A stretch of DNA of 64,000 bases from Octopus vulgaris. Lineage: Eukaryota. A program made the translations under genes and the position numbers. Shown here piece after piece: positions 9,390 to 24,305 of the stretch (position 1 is its first letter; each line of letters opens with the position of its first letter). The DNA is taken from the NCBI GenBank assembly GCA_951406725.2, contig OX597821.1:45508001-45572000 (forward strand). The letters are read 5' to 3'. The notes beneath the pieces are model-generated. The model saw nothing but the letters and a program-made list of their open reading frames with translations, was not told where the DNA came from and made no database searches.

Positions 9390-9512
9390 GGGTTTGGGTT
9401 TTAAGGTTAGGGTCTTAGGGTTAGGGTTTTAGAGCTAGGTTTTATGGTTAGGGTTTTAGAGTTAGGGTTTGGTTTTGGGTTTTAGGGTTAGGGTTGGGAT
9501 TTAGGATTAGAG
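9390..9512 (+). repeat. Degenerate (TTAGGG)-like tract; a second short (TTAGGG)4 tract at 11326-11353
   Basis: Multiple ggttaggg units seen directly. Confidence 0.7.
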
Positions 9513-9976
9513 TTACGAAAACAAGCGAGAAATGAAGAAAGGTGGAGGGGTAGAGGGCAAAATTTTTTTCCGAAAATAGTTGCTGAAATCAAGAAATTGC
9601 CGAAGAAAGACTTTCACTTTATCATGAGCGGCTATCGAAAACGCTGGGGTTTTAATATGACAAAAGAAAATACAAAAATGGTGGGCTTTTATGCACATAT
9701 GTACTAAGGGATATCATATATATGTACAAAATGAAACTTGAGATTTCGAAAGAAATTGTGATGTGTGCCACTATTTTCCTTTTCACATCAAATTCCAATA
9801 TAATCTGAATGTATACATTCTGAAAAGTATTTGTAGCAAATTTCATTAAAAAATACCCAAGTTATGAGGAAACAAAGTCAACTCATGTGAATTTCCCGAA
9901 ACCTCTCTTCCTAACCACAGAATTTTTTAAAATATTAAATTCCTACATAAGCGGAATATACACCATCTAAAACATA

Positions 9977-11288: not shown

Positions 11289-11678
11289 AGTAACATTAAA
11301 AGTAAAATATGTTTTATATGACACATTAGGGTTAGGGTTAGGGTTAGGGTTAGTGTCCGAAGGTTGAAAGTGTTTAGTTACAAAAAATTTATTTCTCGAT
11401 CTGCTGTTCAAAGGGTAAAGATCCCTTATATTATCTATTTAAACCCTTTACAACCTAGAAGGGTTATGGGTCAAGAGGAAAATACATCAATCAAATGTTG
11501 GCAAGGCCATCGGTTGAATAAAACAACATTGTTCCTCAACAGAGCAATAAGGCTCTATAGTTAGGGGGAAATTTACCCATTCAGTTTCAAAACTCAGGTG
11601 GGGCCAAAAGAGGTCTCTACACATACATACGTATACACACACACACATACATACATACATACATCCAAACAACTTCTT

Positions 11679-12032: not shown

Positions 12033-14637
12033 CATATATCTAATATTATATTTTTATTTTTATGTTTTTGTTTTTGGTTTTTTACTGTTTCATTTCCCTA
12101 TTAGTGGTTTTATCTCTAATTTAATTTCTACAGCGTGCACACACACACCTATATGTGGCCCCAGTACACCCGAATGAAATTGGGTTCTCTTCATCAAAAT
12201 GTGAAAAGGGGTCTACAATTATCATCGCCACAACTTATGTATGTCTTCCTCACTCACTCACTCTTTTTCCTAATGATAATTATCATCGCCACCACCAACA
12301 CCACCAACACACAATCATGACAATCTTTCTCTTAAAACAAATCATGTTTACATTGCAAAATATTTCATTTTCCCGTCCTCTCTTTCATATATCACCTTTT
12401 CTTTCTCGAGCTCTCTCTTTTTTCGCCGTTTCTATTTATTCTACAACGAGTCTATCAATGACAGCCGCAAAAGTTTCAATATTCCTACTTCACCTCTTTC
12501 AGAAACGCAACAGATATTATTTTTTTTGCCGGGGTTAAAGCCCACTACATCCCGTCGGATTCACTCCAAAATTTACACCTCTTTCTACCTCTAACTCCCA
12601 TTCAATTTCTCTTTATCTCCATTCTTAAAGATAATTATCATCGCCACCACACCCACCAACACACAATCTGGACAATCTTTCTCTTAAAACAAATCATGCT
12701 TACATTGCAACGACGGCTGCCACCTCCGCCGTCTCTATTTATTCTGCAAATGACCAGAACTCGGGAAACTTGGTTTAGTATTCTATGGTCTATGACCAGA
12801 ACTCGGGAAACTTGGTTGAGTGTTCTATGGTCTATGACCAGAAGTCGGGAAACTTGGTTGAGTGTTCTATGGTCTATGACCAGAAGTCGGGAAACTTGCT
12901 TGACTGTTCTATGGTCTATGACCAGAACTCGGGAAACTTGCTTGACTGTTCTATGGTCTATGACCAGAACTCGGGAAACTTGGTTGAGTGTTCTATGGTC
13001 TATGACCAGAACTCGGGAAACTTGCTTGACTGTTCTATGGTCGATGACCAGAACTCGGGAAACTTGCTTGAGTGTTCTATGGTCTATGACCAGAACTCGG
13101 AAACTTGCTTGACTGTTCTATGGTCTATGACCAGAACTCGGGAAACTTGGTTGAGTGTTCTATGGTCTATGACCAGAACTCGGGAAACTTGCTTGACTGT
13201 TCTATGGTCTATGACCAGAACACGGGAAACTTGGTTGAGTGTTCTATGGTCTATGATCAGAACTCGGGAAACTTGGTTGAGTGTTCTATGGTCTATGACC
13301 AGAACTCGGGAAACTTGGTTGACTGTTCTATGGTCTATGACCAGAACTCGGGAAACTTGGTTGAGTGTTCTATGGTCGATGACCAGAACTTGGGAAACTT
13401 GCTTGACTGTTCTATGGTCTATGACCAGAACACGGGAAACTTGCTTGACTGTTCTATGGTCTATGACCAGAACTCGGGAAACTTGGTTGAGTGTTCTATG
13501 GTCTATGACCAGAACTTGGGAAACTTGCTTGACTGTTCTATGGTCTATGACCAGAACTTGGGAAACTTGGTTGAGTCCTCATCTTATAAAATGTGGCCCC
13601 AGTAGACCCAAATGAAATCGGGTTATATTAACCAAAATGTGAAAAGGGGTCTAAATGGGGCTGGAAGGGGATTCAAATTTAAAGGAGCGGGTGTTTAGCA
13701 ATTCTCTGTTACAGCAAGCTAAAAAATTTGCGCCAGCCTTTTAATCGTCAATGTGTTGCCGTCCATGATAAAGAACTTTTGAATGCTTGCCATGGTGAGT
13801 CTACTGTCGTGAGAAAGAATCACTTCAAAACTTGGTGTTTACGAATTTTCTTATACATCAAGTTCAAAATTTTACGCCAGCCGTTAAACTGTCACTACGT
13901 TGCTGTCCGTCGTTAAGAAATGCCAGCCATGGTGACTCTACTATCCTCAGATTCTATCCCTTCAAACTTTAGTTTCCAATATTTTATTATTTTTCTTCAG
14001 CTCGCAAGTTCGTCTGTCCCTTTTAAATGTTAGTGTTTTGCTGTCTGCCTTGAAGCAGACCTTTCCATTGTTACTGCCTGATATTTATGATTGATCTTTC
14101 TAAATATTTTATTTCTCAACTTACTCAAGATCTTCTGTTGTTTATAAATGGGAGAGAGATAGATAAAGATAGAGAGTAAGAGGAAGCGAGGGAGGGTCCG
14201 AGAGAAAGGAAGAGTAAGAGAGTGGGAAAGTGAGAGAGAAAGGAGAGAGAAACAAAGAGGGAGAATCATCATCATCGTTTAACGTCCGTTTTCCGTGCTA
14301 GCACGGGTTGGACAGTTTGACAGGGGTCTGGGAAGCCAGGAGGCTGCACCAGGCTCCAGTCTGATCTGGCAGTGTTTCGACAGGTGGATGCCTTTCCTAA
14401 CGCCAACCACTCTGTGAGCGTAGTGGGTGCTTTTTTCGTGCCGCCTGCACAGGTGCCAGGGTGGCTGGCAGCGGCCACGATCGGTTGGTGCTTTTTACGT
14501 GCCACCAGCACAGAAGCTAGTCAAGGCGGCGCTGCAATCCGCCACGTTCGGATGGTGCTTTTTACGTGCTGAAAGGAAGCAACAGAAAGTAACAACCACA
14601 CTCTTACCCGCGCGTAGAGCGGGTCACCTTCAGCTAG
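11679..14637 (+). mobile_element. Non-autonomous Helitron, copy 1 (contains 42-bp array and captured RTE-type tail)
   Basis: Ends with hairpin acccgc-gcgtaga-gcgggt (14606-24), then CTAG (14634-37). 11679-11950 and 13577-14440 are duplicated in copy 2. The 5' boundary is uncertain. Confidence 0.65.
12749..13577. repeat. 42-bp minisatellite, ~20 copies
   Basis: Unit tatgaccagaactcgggaaacttggttgagtgttctatggtc with few variants. Confidence 0.95.
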
Positions 14638-16502: not shown

Positions 16503-17215
16503 TGAGACGAGTCCGAGTCCGAGACGAGACGAGTCCGGTCCGGTCCGGTCCGGTCCGGTCCGGTCCGGTCCGGTCCGGTCCGGTCCGGTCCGGTCCGGTC
16601 CGGTCCGGTCCGGTCCGGTCCGGTCCGGTCCGGTCCGGTCCGGTCCGGTCCGGTCCGGTCCGGTCCGGTCCGGTCCGGTCCGGTCCGGTCCGGTCCGGTC
16701 CGGTCCGGTCCGGTCCGGTCCGGTCCGGTCCGGTCCGGTCCGGTCCGGTCCGGTCCGGTCCGGTCCGGTCCGGTCCGGTCCGGTCGGTCCGGTCCGGTCC
16801 GGTCCGGTCCGGTCCGTCGGTCGGTCCGGTCGGTCCGGTCCGGTCCGGTTCGGTTCGGTTCGGTTCGGTTCGGTTCGGTTCGGTTCGGTTCGGTTCGGTT
16901 CGGTTCGGTTCGGTTCGGTTCGGTTCGGTTCGGTTCGGTTCGGTTCGGTTCGGTTCGGTTCGGTTCGGTTCGGTTCGGTTCGGTTCGGTTCGGTTCGGTT
17001 CGGTTCGGTTCGGTTCGGTTCGGCTCGGCTCGGCTCGGTTCGGTTCGGTTCGGTTCGGTTCGGTTCGGTTCGGTTCGGTTCGGTTCGGTTCGGTTCGGTT
17101 CGGTTCGGTTCGGTTCGGTTCGGTTCGGTTCGGTTCGGTTCGGTTCGGTTCGGTTCGGTTCGGTTCGATTCGATTCGGTTCGGTTCGGTTCGGTTCGGTT
17201 CGGTTTTCGGTTCGG
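16503..17215. repeat. GC-rich pentanucleotide satellite: (CCGGT)n switching to (TCGGT)n
   Basis: Seen directly; switch near 16848. Confidence 0.97.
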
Positions 17216-17221
17216 TAAAGT

Positions 17222-18260
17222 AAAAAAGGAAAATTATCATTTCTTATATTTATTTGTTTATGTTATGATTTTATTCCATAAACCCAGACTTCGTGGACAC
17301 CCTAAAATTGCTTTGATTAAAACCCTTTCAACATGGAAGTATCCAAGGAGCATTTAAGGCACATATAATTCTCTATGAGTACAATAAAGGTAACTCTGCA
17401 GCCGAAGTGACTCGAAACATACACTCAGTTTATGGCAAAGTGCTCGAATGAAAGAACTTGCAGGAGATCGTCTGCAAAATTGAAGATGAATATCGAACAG
17501 GATGTCCAGTTGAGTTTGACAAGCTCCTTGAGGCATTACTTGAAGAAAATCCGTCATTATCAGTTGAAGAATTGGCAATAAAGCTTACTTCAAACCATAC
17601 AACAGTTCATCGTCATCTTCAACAACGTGGAAAGATTCCTAAACTTGGAAAATAGGTGCCTTATGTATTGTCCGAAAGCAACCGCAAATCCAGAGTTGGC
17701 ATCTGCTCTTCTCTCCATTCTCGCAAACTCATTTCACCCTTTTTCGATAGACTTGTGATGAAAAATGGATTTTCTATCGAAATGTTAGACGTCGTAAACA
17801 GTGGCTTGGTAAAAGGGAAAAATCTCAACCACAACCGAGAAGGGAACTTCATGGGAAAAAGGTTCTACTCTCTATCTGGTGCGATTGCAAAGGCGTAATT
17901 CACTTTATATTGTTGCCACCTAATGCAACAATCAATGCTCAAGTCTACTGTCAGCAATTAGAGCGTTTGAACCAAGCTTTGAAGGAAAAGAGAGCCGCTT
18001 TAGTGAGTCGAAAACGAGTGATGTTTCATCAGGACAATGCGCAACCCCACATTGCAAAGATCACATCACAGAAGATCGAAGGGGTCGGTTTGGAAAAATT
18101 TCTTCATCCAACTTATTCTCCCGACCTTACTCCTTCAGGATACCATTTGTTTCATAGTTTACAGAATTAGTAGGAGGATACAACTTTCGCAAGCCAGGGG
18201 AGGTCGAACCTGACATTTCAGAGTTCTTCGCTTTGAAACCTAAAGAGTCATTGGCGAAAA
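17222..18260 (+). mobile_element. Degenerate mariner (DD34D) transposon
   Basis: Fragments GCPVEFD, TVHRHLQQRGK, MFHQDNAQPH, HPTYSPDLTPSGYHLF; several frameshifts; TIRs not found. Confidence 0.9.
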
Positions 18261-18640
18261 TATATTTAAGACAGACGATAAAAGTTCTATTTCTTACAAA
18301 ATATTTTGTTACTAACACCGTACAAATTATTTTTATCTTTTACACCTTATGCAAAATTTATTTCGCTTTCTAGTGATGCAGACAATAACCATTTTTATAC
18401 AACTTGAAGAATTCTAATGCTAAATATAATTTTAATGGAGATAACCTGCAGTATATAGTACAACATTTCTGTCTCCGTATATGAGACAAGTATTAATAAA
18501 ATGTGGTATACGATAAAAAATTTCGGATATTTGTCTTAAAACATTCAGACAAGAAAAGTCAGATCTAGCACATGAGGTATTATTCCATACGAATATCCAC
18601 ATATTTATATTAAGAATTTCATGATAAAAATATAGAAATA

Positions 18641-19208
18641 TTGGGTTGTCCGGAAAGTTCTTGCCGATTTATAGCAGCTTATCTTTCGACTTATTTTAGA
18701 AAAATGTTTGAGTCCATAAAATAGGATTTGACTACACCTCCATTTGGAGCACAGTTTAATCTATCTTTTCGTGGAAGAAGGTTTATGTTCCAATAACCTG
18801 TGTTAATTCTGTAACCCTTTAAATTAAAAAGATGAGAAAAATTCATAATCGGCATTTGATGCTTTGGGAACCAGACAAAAATTGCTGCAGCTTGGCTGGG
18901 GTGACTTACCCCACCCTCCATATTCACCAGATATTACTCCTTCGGATTTCCACTTATTCAGGTCTCTGCAGAATAGTGTTAATGGTGAAAATTTCAATTC
19001 CTTAGATGACGTAAAAAGATACCTTGATGAATTATTTGCCTTGAAACTACCCCAATTCTGGGAAGAGGGTATTTTTAAGGTAAAGGTAAGATGGAGACGT
19101 ATTATGCAACGAAATGGTTCAGATTTGGTTCATTAAAAATGTAATGGCAAGTATTTAGTGACCATGTACTTTCCTTTAAAATCAGAACGAACTTTCCGGA
19201 CAACCCAA
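18641..19208 (+). mobile_element. Internally deleted mariner
   Basis: TA|ttgggttgtccggaaagttc ... gaactttccggacaacccaa|TA. Encodes LPHPPYSPDITPSDFHLFRSLQN. Confidence 0.92.
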
Positions 19209-19635
19209 TATAAACATAACAATGAAATATGAATATAAACATGAAAAATTAAAACCTAAATTGAAAGAGGCGATTAAAATTTTTTCCTAACCTGCAGCCG
19301 TTTGAAGTACGAAGTATTCGAAATTCGGCCCTCCTTCCTCAGGGTTCCTTTCTCGCGGTAAAATCCAGCAGAAAGCAGTAAGGCACTACATGAAGAGTAT
19401 TCAGTTGGTGAAAGTTCAGTTTTTGAGTATCTATGAATATGAATCAGTGTCATTATATCACATCCTTGTATCAGTGATTTTTTATTACCCACTAGGGGCT
19501 ACATAGAGGGGACGTTACAAACATTGGGGACATAGAACATCACAATTACATATATATGGGCAAAATGAAATATGAAAAATGATATATGAAAGCGATGCCG
19601 ACGGCCCCATCCGTCAGCATCACTTACCTGTCCTT

Positions 19636-20877
19636 TCACCCATTTCCAATTAGCATTCCTTGCTTACCTATCACAACGTTCATTTTTCTTTCAGCCCTCT
19701 CTATCAATTCATCCTTCATTTGCACTGACTTCCAACACACACCCTCTTCCTCAAACCTTCTCACCAATAAGCCCATATCATCACCATCCACAGCCGTGTA
19801 ATTACAATCTTCATGTTCGTACCAATTGCTTAACACCCCTTTTGCGTTTTGTGTGTCTTTCCCATTTATAACACATAAAAAGTGGGTCTTGGGACTTTCT
19901 TTGTTCTGTGTGTCTGTTTTTGCTTTTCTTGTAGGCGGGGAGTGGGTGGAATCACTGTTTGCAGGGGAAGGATGGGACTCCAAGGGTGTGGGTGGTGTTG
20001 GGGTGGGTTGGGGCTTCGCACAGTTTTTCTTTTTCTTTCTTTTTCTCTTCTTTCTGCCTTCTTCCCACTCTTGCTGCATCTCCTCTTCTTCTGTCGTTTC
20101 CTTTTCTGTTTGGTTCTCTTTAGTTTCTTCCTCTTTTGGGGCTTCAGCAACGATTTCCTTTTCCTTTGGTGGGGGAGGGCAGTAGGCTCTTATGTGACCC
20201 CTCAGGCCACACTTATAGCACCTGGGCGCCCTACCCTCCACCCACACTCTCATAATAATATTCCCAGTTATTATGCTGCCCGTCAGCTTTTCTATTACTT
20301 CCGTCTCCGTCTGTATGTTCATGTCTAATGTGGCACCTCTCACGCCTTCATATTTCATAATGGCGTGGAGGATGTCCACTCTATCTTCGTTTCCTTTGAT
20401 TACCGCGGCCGTTATATATTCGCCCTCTAGGTGTGGAGGTATTCCCTCCACCCTAATTCTGGTGGTCCTTCTATTTAAATACGAGGGGAACAAGTAAATT
20501 TTTTCCGTCCTCACCACCTTGGCTGCTATATTCCTGGCAACTTTCTCGCTTCTAAATTGTACCGTTATAGTTCCATATTCTAATCCTCTTGTCAGGTACA
20601 CGATTTCTTCTCCTGTCTGTTTCAGAGCCTCTTCAATTGCTTCCATATTAATTATTTCCATTTTTCTTCCTCCATTCATATATACTTTATATTTAATGGT
20701 TCTACGATTGAGCCAGTCTCCGCGCCCTGCTGGAGGCAACTGCTCGACCTCTCCGTTCTCCTCCTCCTTCATAAACTCCTGGAAGCCCGGCAACTTAGCC
20801 AGGTCTATCTCTTTTTCTGTTGACTTCTTCGTTATTCTTGCGTAGGTGCTTTCCATCTTTTCCACCGCTCTCTCCAA
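19636..20877 (-). CDS. Gag-like / LINE ORF1-like protein (RRM-like region + CCHC zinc knuckle), element A
   Basis: Uninterrupted 413-codon frame with CYKCGLRGHIRAYC (CX2CX4HX4C), acidic and basic tracts. First in-frame ATG near 20856. Clear paralog in element B. Confidence 0.8.
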   Translation of the reverse strand: MERAVEKMESTYARITKKSTEKEIDLAKLPGFQEFMKEEENGEVEQLPPAGRGDWLNRRTIKYKVYMNGGRKMEIINMEAIEEALKQTGEEIVYLTRGLEYGTITVQFRSEKVARNIAAKVVRTEKIYLFPSYLNRRTTRIRVEGIPPHLEGEYITAAVIKGNEDRVDILHAIMKYEGVRGATLDMNIQTETEVIEKLTGSIITGNIIMRVWVEGRAPRCYKCGLRGHIRAYCPPPPKEKEIVAEAPKEEETKENQTEKETTEEEEMQQEWEEGRKKRKRKKKKNCAKPQPTPTPPTPLESHPSPANSDSTHSPPTRKAKTDTQNKESPKTHFLCVINGKDTQNAKGVLSNWYEHEDCNYTAVDGDDMGLLVRRFEEEGVCWKSVQMKDELIERAERKMNVVIGKQGMLIGNG

Positions 20878-21203
20878 CTCCTCCTCAGATGTCGACGAAA
20901 TTTCAGAGAAATTTCTCCTTCCATCTCATCCGTTTGGTAGAGGCGGCTCATAGTCGCCTCAGACCGAAAAACGGCCTCCCGAACTGAAACAGTGCGACAC
21001 ACAGAACCAGTGCGACGCGAAACCGCACCAACCGACGTTCAAAATTCCACAACATGATTCTTTATTACCCACCAGGGGGTGACACAGAGGGACACCACAA
21101 GACATGGGGACATAGAACATTACAATTAAATTTATGAAAAATGAGTTATTACATGAAAATAATGATAATATGAAAGCGATGCTAAAGGCCCCATCCGTTA
21201 GCA

Positions 21204-22468
21204 TCACTTACCTGTCCTTTGGTTTTCACTGTCACTTAAATGTTCATTCCCGATACGAAGACCTTCCATATCCATTCTTACTCCGAAATACTCCTCCATT
21301 TTTTCCACGAATTCATCGCTCATTCTTGTATCTTTCACCTCCCAATTCTCCCTTTCACACCTCAACACAAACTCATCTATTTTCTTTTTCTCAATCACTG
21401 CATATCTGGTCTCACCTATTTCATACCATTTATACTCTTCCATTACCCTTTTAACTTCTTTCTGTTCAGTCATAGTACAAATGTACGGCCTGGGTTCGAT
21501 TTCAATCTCTTGTCTGTCTGTATTATTTTTTTTCTTTTGTTTTCTTGTTGGAGGGGAGCGGGTGGGTTCACTGTCTGCAGGGATAGGGTGGGTCTCAGAG
21601 GGTGTGGGTGGTGTTGGGTGGATTGGTGTTCTATGTTATTTTCTTTTCCTCGTATTCTCCTCTTCCTCTTATTCCCAGCTTCTTTCCATTTCTGTGAATT
21701 CTCTTCTTCTACTGTCTCCTTCTCCTCTAGTTTCTGCTTCTCTCTCTGTGGTTCGGAATCCATTTCTTTCACTGGGGGAGGGCAGTAGGCTCTTATGTGA
21801 CCCCTCAGGCCACACTTGTAACAACGTGGAGCTCTGCCCTCCACCCACACTCTCATGATCACGTCTCCCAATCTGATGCTTTCCGCCAGGTCCACCAGCA
21901 CATCGTTCTCTGCCTGCACGTTCAGTTCCACTGTTACGCCTCTCCAGCCCTCGGTCTTAACCGAGGCATGGAGAATATCCACTTCCTCCTCGTGGCCGCT
22001 GATCACAGCCGCCACAATCCACTCGGCCTCAACGTTTGGTGGCACTCCCTCGACCCTTACTCTAGTAATTCTTCTTTTTAGATACGTAGGCAAAAGTGTT
22101 ACCTTCTCGGATTTTACCGCCTTTGCCGCCATCTTCCTTGCTGCATTCTCACTTTTAAACTGTACCACTACAGTTCCATACTTTGATCCTCGAGTCAGAA
22201 AATTAATCTCCTTTTCCGTTCTTCTTAGCGCCTCCTCTATCCACTCCATGTTTACAACTTCTATCTTCTTCCTTTCGCTTGCGAACACCCTGTATATGAT
22301 GGTCCTTTTATCGTACCATTCTTTTCTCTTGGGTGTCGGTGCTAGTTCGACCTCACCGCTGTCCTTCTTCATATATTTCTGGTAACTTGGCAGCTTGGCC
22401 AAGTCCACCCCTTTCTCTTCCGCCTTCCTGGTCACTCCGGCATAGGTATAACCCAGCTTCATTCCCAC
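21204..22468 (-). pseudogene. Gag-like ORF1 protein, element B, one frameshift near 21620
   Basis: Shares IMRVWVEGRAPRCYKCGLRGHIRAYCPPP with A. The C-terminal segment 21204-21473 resembles A's C-terminus but lies in another frame. Confidence 0.8.
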
Positions 22469-22674
22469 TAACTTAAATTCTGAGAGGTAAACGGTTTCAT
22501 TAAATCTCTAGTGCCAGTTTAGCATACAGTAAATGTGGCCATTTACAATTTAGTATCCTATCTGTTGCCAATTCTAGACCATAGCTCTAACCCTCACATA
22601 AACCATAACAAGGCATGCACACAATGTAAACAAAAACAGAAACACAACCAAATAAAGAGTAAATCAATTTTAAT

Positions 22675-24305
22675 GCAGGATGTTAGAATTTGTGATGCAA
22701 ATGCAAAGAATAGAAGAAGAGTCCATGGCCACACTGCAATTGTACAACAGGTGTGTAATACATTTTGAAGCATGATACATGTATGCAAGCAAGATGTTAC
22801 AATTTGTGATGCAAATGCAAAGAATAGAAGAAGAGTCCATGGCAGCACTGCAATTGTACAACAGGTGTGTAATACATTTTGAAGCATGATACATGTATGC
22901 AAGCAGGATGTTAGAATTTGTGATGCAAATGCAAAGAATAGAAGAAGAGTCCATGGCAGGACAGCAATTGTACAACAGGTGTGTAATACATTTTGAAGCA
23001 TGATACATGTATGCAAGCAGGATGTTAGAATTTGTGATGCAAATGCAAAGAATAGAAGAGTCCATGGCTGCACTGCAATTGTACAACAGGTGTGTAATAC
23101 ATTTTGAAGCATGATACATGTATGCAAGCAGGATGTTAGAATTTGTGATGCAAATGCAAAGAATAGAAGAAGAGTCCATGGCAGCACTGCAATTGTACAA
23201 CAGGTGTGTAATACATTTTGAAGCATGATACATGTATGCAAGCAGGATGTTACAATTTGTGATGCAAATGCAAAGAATAGAAGAAGAGTCCATGGCCGCA
23301 CTGCAATTGTACAACAGGTGTGTAATACATTTTGAAGCATGATACATGTATGCAAGCAGGATGTTAGAATTTGTGATGCAAATGCAAAGAATAGAAGAGT
23401 CCATGGCCACACTGCAATTGTACAACAGGTGTGTAATACATTTTGAAGCATGATACATATATGCAAGCATGATGTTAGAATTTGTGATGCAAATGCAAAG
23501 AATAGAAGAAGAGTCCATGGCAGGACTGCAATTGTACAACAGGTGTGTAATACATTTTGAAGCATGATACATATATGCAAGCAGGATGTTAGAATTTGTG
23601 ATGCAAATGCAAAGATTAGAAGAAGAGTCTATGGCCACACTGCAATTGTACAACAGGTGTGTAATACATTTTGAAGCATGATACATGTATGCAAGCAGGA
23701 TGTTACAATTTGTGATGCAAATGCAAAGAATAGAAGAAGAGTCCATGGCCGCACTGCAATTGTACAACAGGTGTGTAATACATTTTGAAGCATGATACAT
23801 GTATGCAAGCAGGATGTTAGAATTTGTGATGCAAATGCAAAGAATAGAAGAAGAGTCCATGGCAGGACTGCAATTGTACAACAGGTGTGTAATACATTTT
23901 GAAGCATGATACATGTATGCAAGCAGGATGTTACAATTTGTGATGCAAATGTAAAGAATAGAAGAAGAGTCCATGGCAGGACTGCAATTGTACAACAGGT
24001 GGTTAATACATTTTGAAGCATGATACATGTATGCAAGCAGGATGTTACAATTTGTGATGCAAATGCAAAGAATAGAAGAAGAGTCCATGGCCGCACTGCA
24101 ATTGTACAACAGGTGTGTAATACATTTTGAAGCATGATACATATATGCAAGCAGGATGTTACAATTTGTGATGCAAATGTAAAGAATAGAAGAAGAGTCC
24201 ATGGCCACACTGCAATTGTACAACAGGTGTGTAATACATTTTGAAGCATGATACATGTATGCAAGCAGGATGTTACAATTTGTGATGCAAATGTAAAGAA
24301 TAGAA
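22675..24305. repeat. 114-bp tandem repeat, ~14 copies (some 111-bp variants)
   Basis: Unit caggatgttagaatttgtgatgcaaatgcaaagaatagaagaagagtccatggc...gtatgcaag recurs every 114 nt. Confidence 0.95.

Follow-up and report, generated by a model that had tools for sequence, protein, structure and literature searches.

ORF1-only retrotransposons of Octopus vulgaris, probably copied by a Tx1-like partner and stacked at Helitron sites

Introduction

How does a retroelement that encodes no reverse transcriptase (RT) come to be copied, and why would it keep a protein-coding frame of its own? These questions are raised by a locus in a 64,000-nucleotide (nt) stretch of Octopus vulgaris DNA (assembly GCA_951406725.2, contig OX597821.1, positions 45,508,001 to 45,572,000), here called the window. 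Its minus strand carries two units, A and B, arranged head-to-tail. An earlier note, made from the letters of the window, had described them as tandem retroelements with a first open reading frame (ORF1) and no RT, and had suggested an invertebrate half of a long interspersed nuclear element (LINE) of L1/Tx1-like type that borrows its RT. We found that both units are damaged and belong to an ORF1-only, non-autonomous family of L1/Tx1 type, which moves as a unit of ~1.6-1.7 kb. Our overall reading, to which we give a probability of about 80%, is that they are damaged ORF1-only retrotransposons that move with target duplications, are likely copied by a Tx1-like LINE (X) through a shared 3′ tail, and likely stack both at sites in two Helitrons and next to earlier insertions, at their 5′ ends.

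Genomic distribution and mobility

The 2.8-Gb genome yielded at least 150 scored matches to the A core, and a 30-nt motif at the ORF1 end had 237 exact matches, compared with 0 for its reversed control, an excess over chance. The copies examined were ranked by similarity to A, to the related lineage Z or to one homolog (best 150 per search) and do not amount to a census. In 937 kb of DNA, 173 zinc knuckles of A/B type were found, of which 10 lay too close to the end of a stretch to be evaluated. In all of the remaining 163, the tail was located 397-745 nt downstream of the knuckle, which leaves no room for a second frame (ORF2) between ORF1 and tail. The absence of RT seen in the window is shared by the evaluable family copies. 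Of the 60 loci found with the diverged homolog or with Z as query, only one (L259) had endonuclease sequence within 1.5 kb downstream; this locus was rejected as an autonomous A-like element, since the endonuclease sits behind the unit's own tail.

The unit without ORF2 is itself flanked by target-site duplications. Four of the 15 older loci that were examined hold full-length solitary copies of 1569-1660 nt with duplications of 16-23 bp (L320 at C16:57.88M, L321, L322 at C20:29.53M, L324), and 5′-truncated copies carry duplications of 11-18 bp (L032, L038, L041, L044). Hundreds of copies are dispersed, intronless and often truncated, and 97 of 154 units differ by less than 1% from a copy at another locus. 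Such mobile copies argue against a fixed host gene family, which the earlier note had considered. One ~8.4-kb tandem duplication (L198-L199, C27:26.27-26.28M) holds two A-type units together with the long frame of a C2H2 zinc-finger array.

The ORF1 protein

The open frame of A (19636..20877, minus strand) is 413 codons long, as had been noted, but it begins at a TTG; its first ATG is at 20856. A loss of 1 nt near 20915-20920, recognized by comparison with intact relatives of 442-454 amino acids, has put this frame out of register with the family start codon at ~20951. The CCHC knuckle of A (20176..20223) gave a weak match to Pfam zf-CCHC (E 0.06); the domain was found in nine of nine aligned family members (best E 5e-5). 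Transposase_22 was not found in the family ORF1 by Pfam, which returned zf-CCHC only. An AlphaFold2 model built from the nine-row alignment predicts two RRM/ferredoxin-like domains (pLDDT 81; residues 28-112 and 111-192), which correspond to 20233..20727 in A. The top Foldseek matches of the model are tandem-RRM proteins (E 6e-6), and VIA-align gave a best Z of 9.0, a middling value (rmsd 2.3, 78 aligned). The RRM-like plus CCHC architecture first read from the sequence is therefore borne out by Pfam and by the model. A combination of RRM and CCHC defines type I ORF1 and is associated with Tx1 elements (PMC5203782). Based on these predictions, the family ORF1 is a predicted RNA-binding protein of type I.

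Homologs of ORF1 were recovered from Octopus proteins only in two word-index searches, by which distant homologs outside Octopus are poorly sampled. Some family copies are annotated as uncharacterised octopus proteins, and the look-alikes in the ESM Atlas include a ZCCHC3 cluster (score 0.90).

ORF1 of the ORF1-only subfamilies is under purifying selection. Ratios of nonsynonymous to synonymous substitution rates (dN/dS) in the core were 0.13 for A/B, with dS near saturation, 0.22 for A/A1, 0.16 for A1/A2, 0.12 for B/B1 and 0.08 for Y1/Y2, and the upper bootstrap bounds did not exceed 0.38. The mosaic nature of the C-terminal half raised the values for the whole ORF to 0.16-0.53. The identical knuckle peptide of A and B had also been offered as a sign of selection. 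We dropped this argument, since a tract of 45 nt (20170..20214 in A, 21773-21817 in B) is identical at the DNA level, synonymous sites included, within a core in which the proportion of synonymous differences (pS) is 0.70. Such a pattern points to recombination rather than to selection on the protein, and the tract is likely a recombination product.

Related lineages and a candidate helper

Adjacent to A/B units are copies of the ORF1-only lineages Y1, Y2 and Z and of a complete LINE, X; at least three ORF1-only lineages thus exist besides A/B. ORF2 of X is 1132 amino acids (aa) long and carries endonuclease, RT and zf-RVT domains. By hand count, about 50 of the 150 X matches listed keep an open frame of 1129-1133 codons. 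The features bearing on the clade of X are an APE endonuclease, an RT and a C-terminal zinc motif in ORF2, accompanied by an RRM/CCHC ORF1; the one homolog with a name, 'Transposon TX1 149 kDa protein' (26% identity), is a lead only. A 3′ tail of ~40 nt is common to A, B, Y1, Y2, Z, X and a short interspersed nuclear element (SINE). The tail is likely the end recognized by the RT, and X is the likely helper that copies the ORF1-only units, as judged from these sequence features. Lack of ORF2, target duplications, selection on ORF1 and an intact partner with the same tail together support the proposal of a half-LINE that borrows its RT.

X is one of three autonomous partners with a related ORF1 and the shared 3′ end, the others being X2 and X3. 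X2 is ~95% identical to X in ORF2 and only ~69% in ORF1, so its ORF1 may diverge much faster than ORF2 or may have been swapped. At one locus (L311:3640-5700) an X-like element, in which ORF1 is deleted and a short 5′ frame runs directly into the endonuclease domain, lies right behind an ORF1-only unit. We also considered whether ORF1 of X is usually broken and hence complemented by the ORF1-only units. This idea was dropped: contigs of the coded runs show an extra A at the same A-runs, and the frameshifts in X ORF1 may therefore be assembly errors.

An inverted repeat around a G-rich loop is present in every LINE-derived 3′ untranslated region (UTR) of the group. A hairpin is predicted there in A, B, Y1, Y2 and X, and is absent from the best fold of Z. 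In A the predicted stem has 13 bp (19592..19623), and 19 sequence variants of the A/B stem-loop mostly retain pairing, largely via G-U. X and X3 share a conserved splice-donor-like motif between the stop of ORF1 and the start of ORF2 (L136:8085-8100, L237), which might act through U1 binding, in read-through or nuclear retention. The end of ORF1 in A/B resembles this junction, with a donor-like motif that overlaps a stop and an ATG (19618..19630 in A); the motif was present in 14 of 30 loci of the diverged-homolog search. Such a resemblance is expected if an ancestor lost ORF2 by deletion, and the motif is likely a relic of the lost ORF2 start. Splicing from the motif, giving an ORF1-only mRNA or joining A ORF1 to X ORF2, was not seen among the joints listed in contigs of five coded runs, although contigs cannot exclude it.

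A midpoint-rooted tree of ORF1 (22 rows, one knuckle-less row omitted) joined A/B and an O. sinensis protein in one clade (support 100/99) and Y and Z in another (94/94, with a long-branch warning). Both clades are separate from the autonomous X/X2, X3 and W. The ORF1 core of A is 36% identical to that of X, and the A/B clade as a whole is 36-38% identical to X ORF1. This divergence and the separation in the tree indicate that the ORF1-only lineages are old.

The SINE with the same tail occurs ~100-330 nt downstream of a unit's tail at L020 and in the 3′ flanks at L042 and L059. It is presumably one of the octopus CORE-SINEs, and X may be its partner LINE as well. Two copies of B type have landed in the 5′ part of the SINE, at similar positions. 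Scans for tRNA and Rfam matches at the SINE-bearing locus gave nothing relevant.

Insertion targets

The family and X prefer two Helitrons, T1 and T2, and the 5′ ends of earlier insertions. Helitrons start with TC at the 5′ end, carry a hairpin before CTRR at the 3′ end and have no terminal inverted repeats; the termini of T1 and T2 fit this description. T1 is a non-autonomous Helitron of ~1.15 kb with many family units at one spot. Among 30 T1 loci, 17 were filled at this spot, 12 were empty and one was deleted, counts that are biased because the query was taken from a filled copy. The genome holds 836 exact empty T1 sites. A decayed piece of ORF1 from the same LINE superfamily surrounds the spot (tblastn E 1e-7; L103, G000:C11:46.889M). 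One target allele was present at 32 of 33 filled 3′ junctions and at 30 of the first 100 empty sites listed (counted by eye), where the filled sites are perhaps non-independent. At a different T1 site, ~65 bp upstream of the main spot, an older lineage of the A/B clade was observed (L314, L315, L316; C32:307k, C20:31.9M, C23:48.75M).

T2 is a composite element of ~11 kb with Helitron-type ends. It shares its 5′ end with T1, contains mariner and RT fragments, and is antisense to A and B in the window. The family tail was found at one T2 spot of ~60 bp in 14 of 30 loci; both flanks were present in eight, with duplications of 7-36 bp. X2 makes its own ~5.3-kb tandem arrays in T2 (L131-L134, L196-L197, L235-L236; C27:32.95M, C30:10.43M, C22:14.18M, C58).

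Mixed trains

At the Helitron hot spots, units of several lineages form mixed head-to-tail trains of up to ~40 kb. One reads Z-B-A-Y2-X (C4:26.04M); another holds ~20 A/B units followed by three Y1 and X (C10:47.67-47.71M). The arrays are interstitial and lie deep in contigs (e.g., C10:47.7M of 118M, C1:142.9M of 226M). The rule that X is always last was rejected as stated: it holds for train 3′ ends only, and X also occurs inside trains.

For 124 units in multi-unit loci, the closest relative was at another locus in 97 cases and a neighbour in 26, with one tie. Neighbouring units carry the same locus-specific variants of target-derived spacers or of the duplicated target. Taken together, these two observations favour repeated insertion at a regenerated site, and trains likely arise by repeated insertion at preferred Helitron sites and at the 5′ ends of earlier insertions.

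Trains could instead form in one event, in which RT starts on X RNA at the target and jumps from an RNA 5′ end to the next 3′ tail, as in R2, or copies a multi-unit read-through transcript. By hand count, X is the 3′-most unit in 19 of 19 X-containing T1 trains with a visible 3′ end, many A/B/Z junctions join a tail to a 5′ end with no obvious spacer, and 5′ leaders characteristic of one locus (the C2:158.8M duplication, a piece of T2) turn up inside a train on C3, which indicates that RNAs carry flanking DNA. We nevertheless find a one-event origin unlikely. Target-derived spacers of 11-65 bp separate many units, with the locus-specific variants shared between neighbours, and in one T2 copy an A/B unit and X are ~50 bp of target apart. 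Some trains lack X, one has A downstream of X, and units within one train differ by up to 35%.

A mainly DNA-level origin, by unequal crossover between units and Helitron transposition of a few founder insertions, seems distinctly unlikely. It would account for near-identical neighbours in some arrays (0-0.3%), for unit-Helitron junctions that are identical at about a dozen loci and for the 2.3 kb of flank that the window block has in common with loci on C1 and C4. It does not sit well with the 97 units closest to one elsewhere, with the variation among filled Helitrons, both in the bases at their junctions and in the units they contain (A only, B last, Y2 last, X only, mixtures), or with the older lineage at a different site of T1 (three loci). 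Repeated insertion, template jumping or read-through, and local duplication may all contribute to trains.

The pair in the window

Unit A occupies 19476..21055 (minus strand) and lacks ~75 nt at the start of the family 5′ UTR. Unit B (21056..22460, minus strand) is an ORF1-only element of a sister subfamily, truncated at its 5′ end at 22460, with its frame split by a frameshift near 21617. The knuckle of B, located by Pfam search, is at 21779..21826; its ORF1 stop, donor-like junction relic and stem-loop are at 21176..21214. The core of B has 61% aa identity to A. At the nucleotide level the units are 70% identical over 686 nt of the ORF and 81% over the last ~170 nt. Intact family ORF1s have 442-472 aa, and by this measure both window copies are damaged. 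The closest relatives found differ by 2.1% from A (on C18) and by 5.5% from B.

The 3′ tails lie at 19476..19520 in A and at 21056..21100 in B. The short 3′ UTR is conserved, as had been proposed; the A-rich end, in contrast, is not a poly(A) tail, since A and B stop ~5 nt past a polyadenylation-type hexamer. A longer A-run at the 3′ end was found in only five of 30 Z loci. The tail of B directly abuts the 5′ UTR of A. This junction had been taken as a hint of target preference, which is real in the family, with T1 and T2 as targets, but is not shown by the B-A junction alone.

Unit A adjoins T2, of which a remnant at 17217..19475 (plus strand, antisense to A and B) represents one side of the insertion hot spot. 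The remnant includes a mariner-like piece at 18641-19208, and other mariner-like pieces are also present. The window pair is an older, dead example of the family beside one half of its second target. Flanking the element block, at 16536-17216 and 22675-24305, are a pentanucleotide microsatellite whose repeat unit changes midway and a satellite of 114 bp (14.4 copies, 96% matches). Hexamer repeats that resemble degenerate telomeric sequence, and a minisatellite of 42 bp (19.7 copies), were observed at 9390-9515, 11326-11353 and 12750-13576.

Proposed mechanism and weighing of the evidence

In the mechanism that we propose, a unit would be transcribed and its RNA packaged in cis by its own ORF1, which would account for the selection on that frame. 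An X-type ORF2 would recognize the shared tail in trans and prime reverse transcription at a nick. The site would be recreated at the 5′ junction, either by the target duplication or by a target-like 5′ leader that the element brings along; later insertions would then land upstream, and the newest unit would be the 5′-most. Recombination between RNAs could swap 3′ halves and tails and yield mosaics such as the 45-nt knuckle tract.

Several points weigh against this reading. Copies picked by similarity could have missed a diverged autonomous element with an A/B-like ORF1. The Tx1-like placement of X draws on domain make-up, and X is only one candidate helper, as the autonomous X2 and X3 bear the same tail. 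Some arrays are locally homogeneous, with four of five units closest to a neighbour at C2:158.8M and three of three at C2:138.8M, which fits local duplication; copying by Helitrons could explain the junctions that are identical at many loci. The window locus lacks the upstream half of T2, as do C1:106.9M and C4:124.8M, and no target duplication was found around the A/B pair, which may have arisen by 3′ transduction, by partial duplication or through a rearranged insertion. Because many solitary copies are located away from T1 and T2, the family shows target preference and not strict specificity.

It is highly improbable that the units are ordinary LINE copies whose ORF2 was lost once they had inserted, or that they form a ZCCHC3-like gene family of the host: the ZCCHC3 look-alikes, the copies annotated as octopus proteins and the existence of X copies with internal deletions speak for it, and against it stand target duplications around the ORF2-less unit itself, the hundreds of dispersed copies, the tail directly after ORF1 in every evaluable copy, and an A/B clade far from X ORF1 that diversified under purifying selection without ORF2.

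Comparison with known systems

ORF1-only LINEs and transposon-targeting Tx1 elements are each known, and we found no description of the combination in the literature covered. In the octopus repeat annotation of PMC13282606, the passages seen list 80 L1-Tx1 families with no mention of ORF1. Expansion of L1-Tx1 and the existence of CORE-SINEs have been described for octopus (PMC8967140, PMC4824008, PMC4758252). Within the literature passages covered, no account was found of Tx1-like elements with ORF1 only, of their insertion into Helitrons or of such trains in cephalopods, and the families may already be filed in Repbase, Dfam or the PMC13282606 library. Some octopus genes listed as 'uncharacterised' are in fact these elements, a warning for annotation.

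The octopus family is similar to mammalian HAL1, an ORF1-only, non-autonomous derivative of the L1 group in which ORF1 coding was kept for long (PMC5753468, PMC3627910, PMC5786205). Supply of ORF2 in trans has been proposed for HAL1 and is the likely arrangement here. HAL1 in the strict sense has a mammalian L1 origin and a type II ORF1 with Transposase_22; the octopus elements, found in a mollusc, have a type I ORF1. They also differ in ending in the shared ~40-nt tail without poly(A), in having at least four coexisting lineages, some very young, and in their target preference and mixed trains. Another invertebrate ORF1-only, non-autonomous LINE is Ag-Sponge of Anopheles (PMC5786205), which belongs to the CR1 clade; the passage on it in that source is silent on targeting and arrays.

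Mixed head-to-tail arrays of ORF1-only elements and autonomous partners are found at Drosophila telomeres, where HeT-A occurs with TART/TAHRE (PMC13534243, PMC5786205) and ~40% of the telomeric families are ORF1-only (PMC13534243). Those elements belong to the Jockey clade, occupy chromosome ends and have a host function, whereas the octopus arrays are interstitial, lie inside Helitrons with target duplications and have no known host role. A bolder view, which we hold only tentatively and consider rather unlikely, would make the octopus system an interstitial counterpart of HeT-A/TART. One Tx1-type RT would serve old, separately selected ORF1-only lineages and a SINE; a Helitron with a captured piece of ORF1 would spread the 836 exact landing pads; ORF1-only proteins would act in trans, either supplying the autonomous element or steering it; and Helitron and LINEs would spread each other. 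A likely active helper with a defined tail and defined targets makes it testable why RT-less LINEs keep ORF1, be it for packaging in cis or for a role in trans as proposed for HeT-A.

With respect to targeting, the closest parallels are Tx1 in Tx1D of Xenopus and Tx1-Mar with SINEU in Mariner-N4_AMi of crocodilians, in which a non-autonomous DNA transposon is the preferred target of both a Tx1-type LINE and its non-autonomous followers, with more than one hot spot and with tandems that sandwich a target duplication (PMC4494074). There, SINEs without coding capacity act as followers, and piggyBac or Mariner elements serve as targets (PMC4494074). The octopus followers code for ORF1 and insert into Helitrons, where one hot spot is placed in a decayed piece of ORF1, and their trains reach ~20 units; the system also offers a compact endonuclease with target preference. 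ORF1-only LINEs are thereby extended to a Tx1-like lineage in a mollusc, where they form a young and diverse guild.

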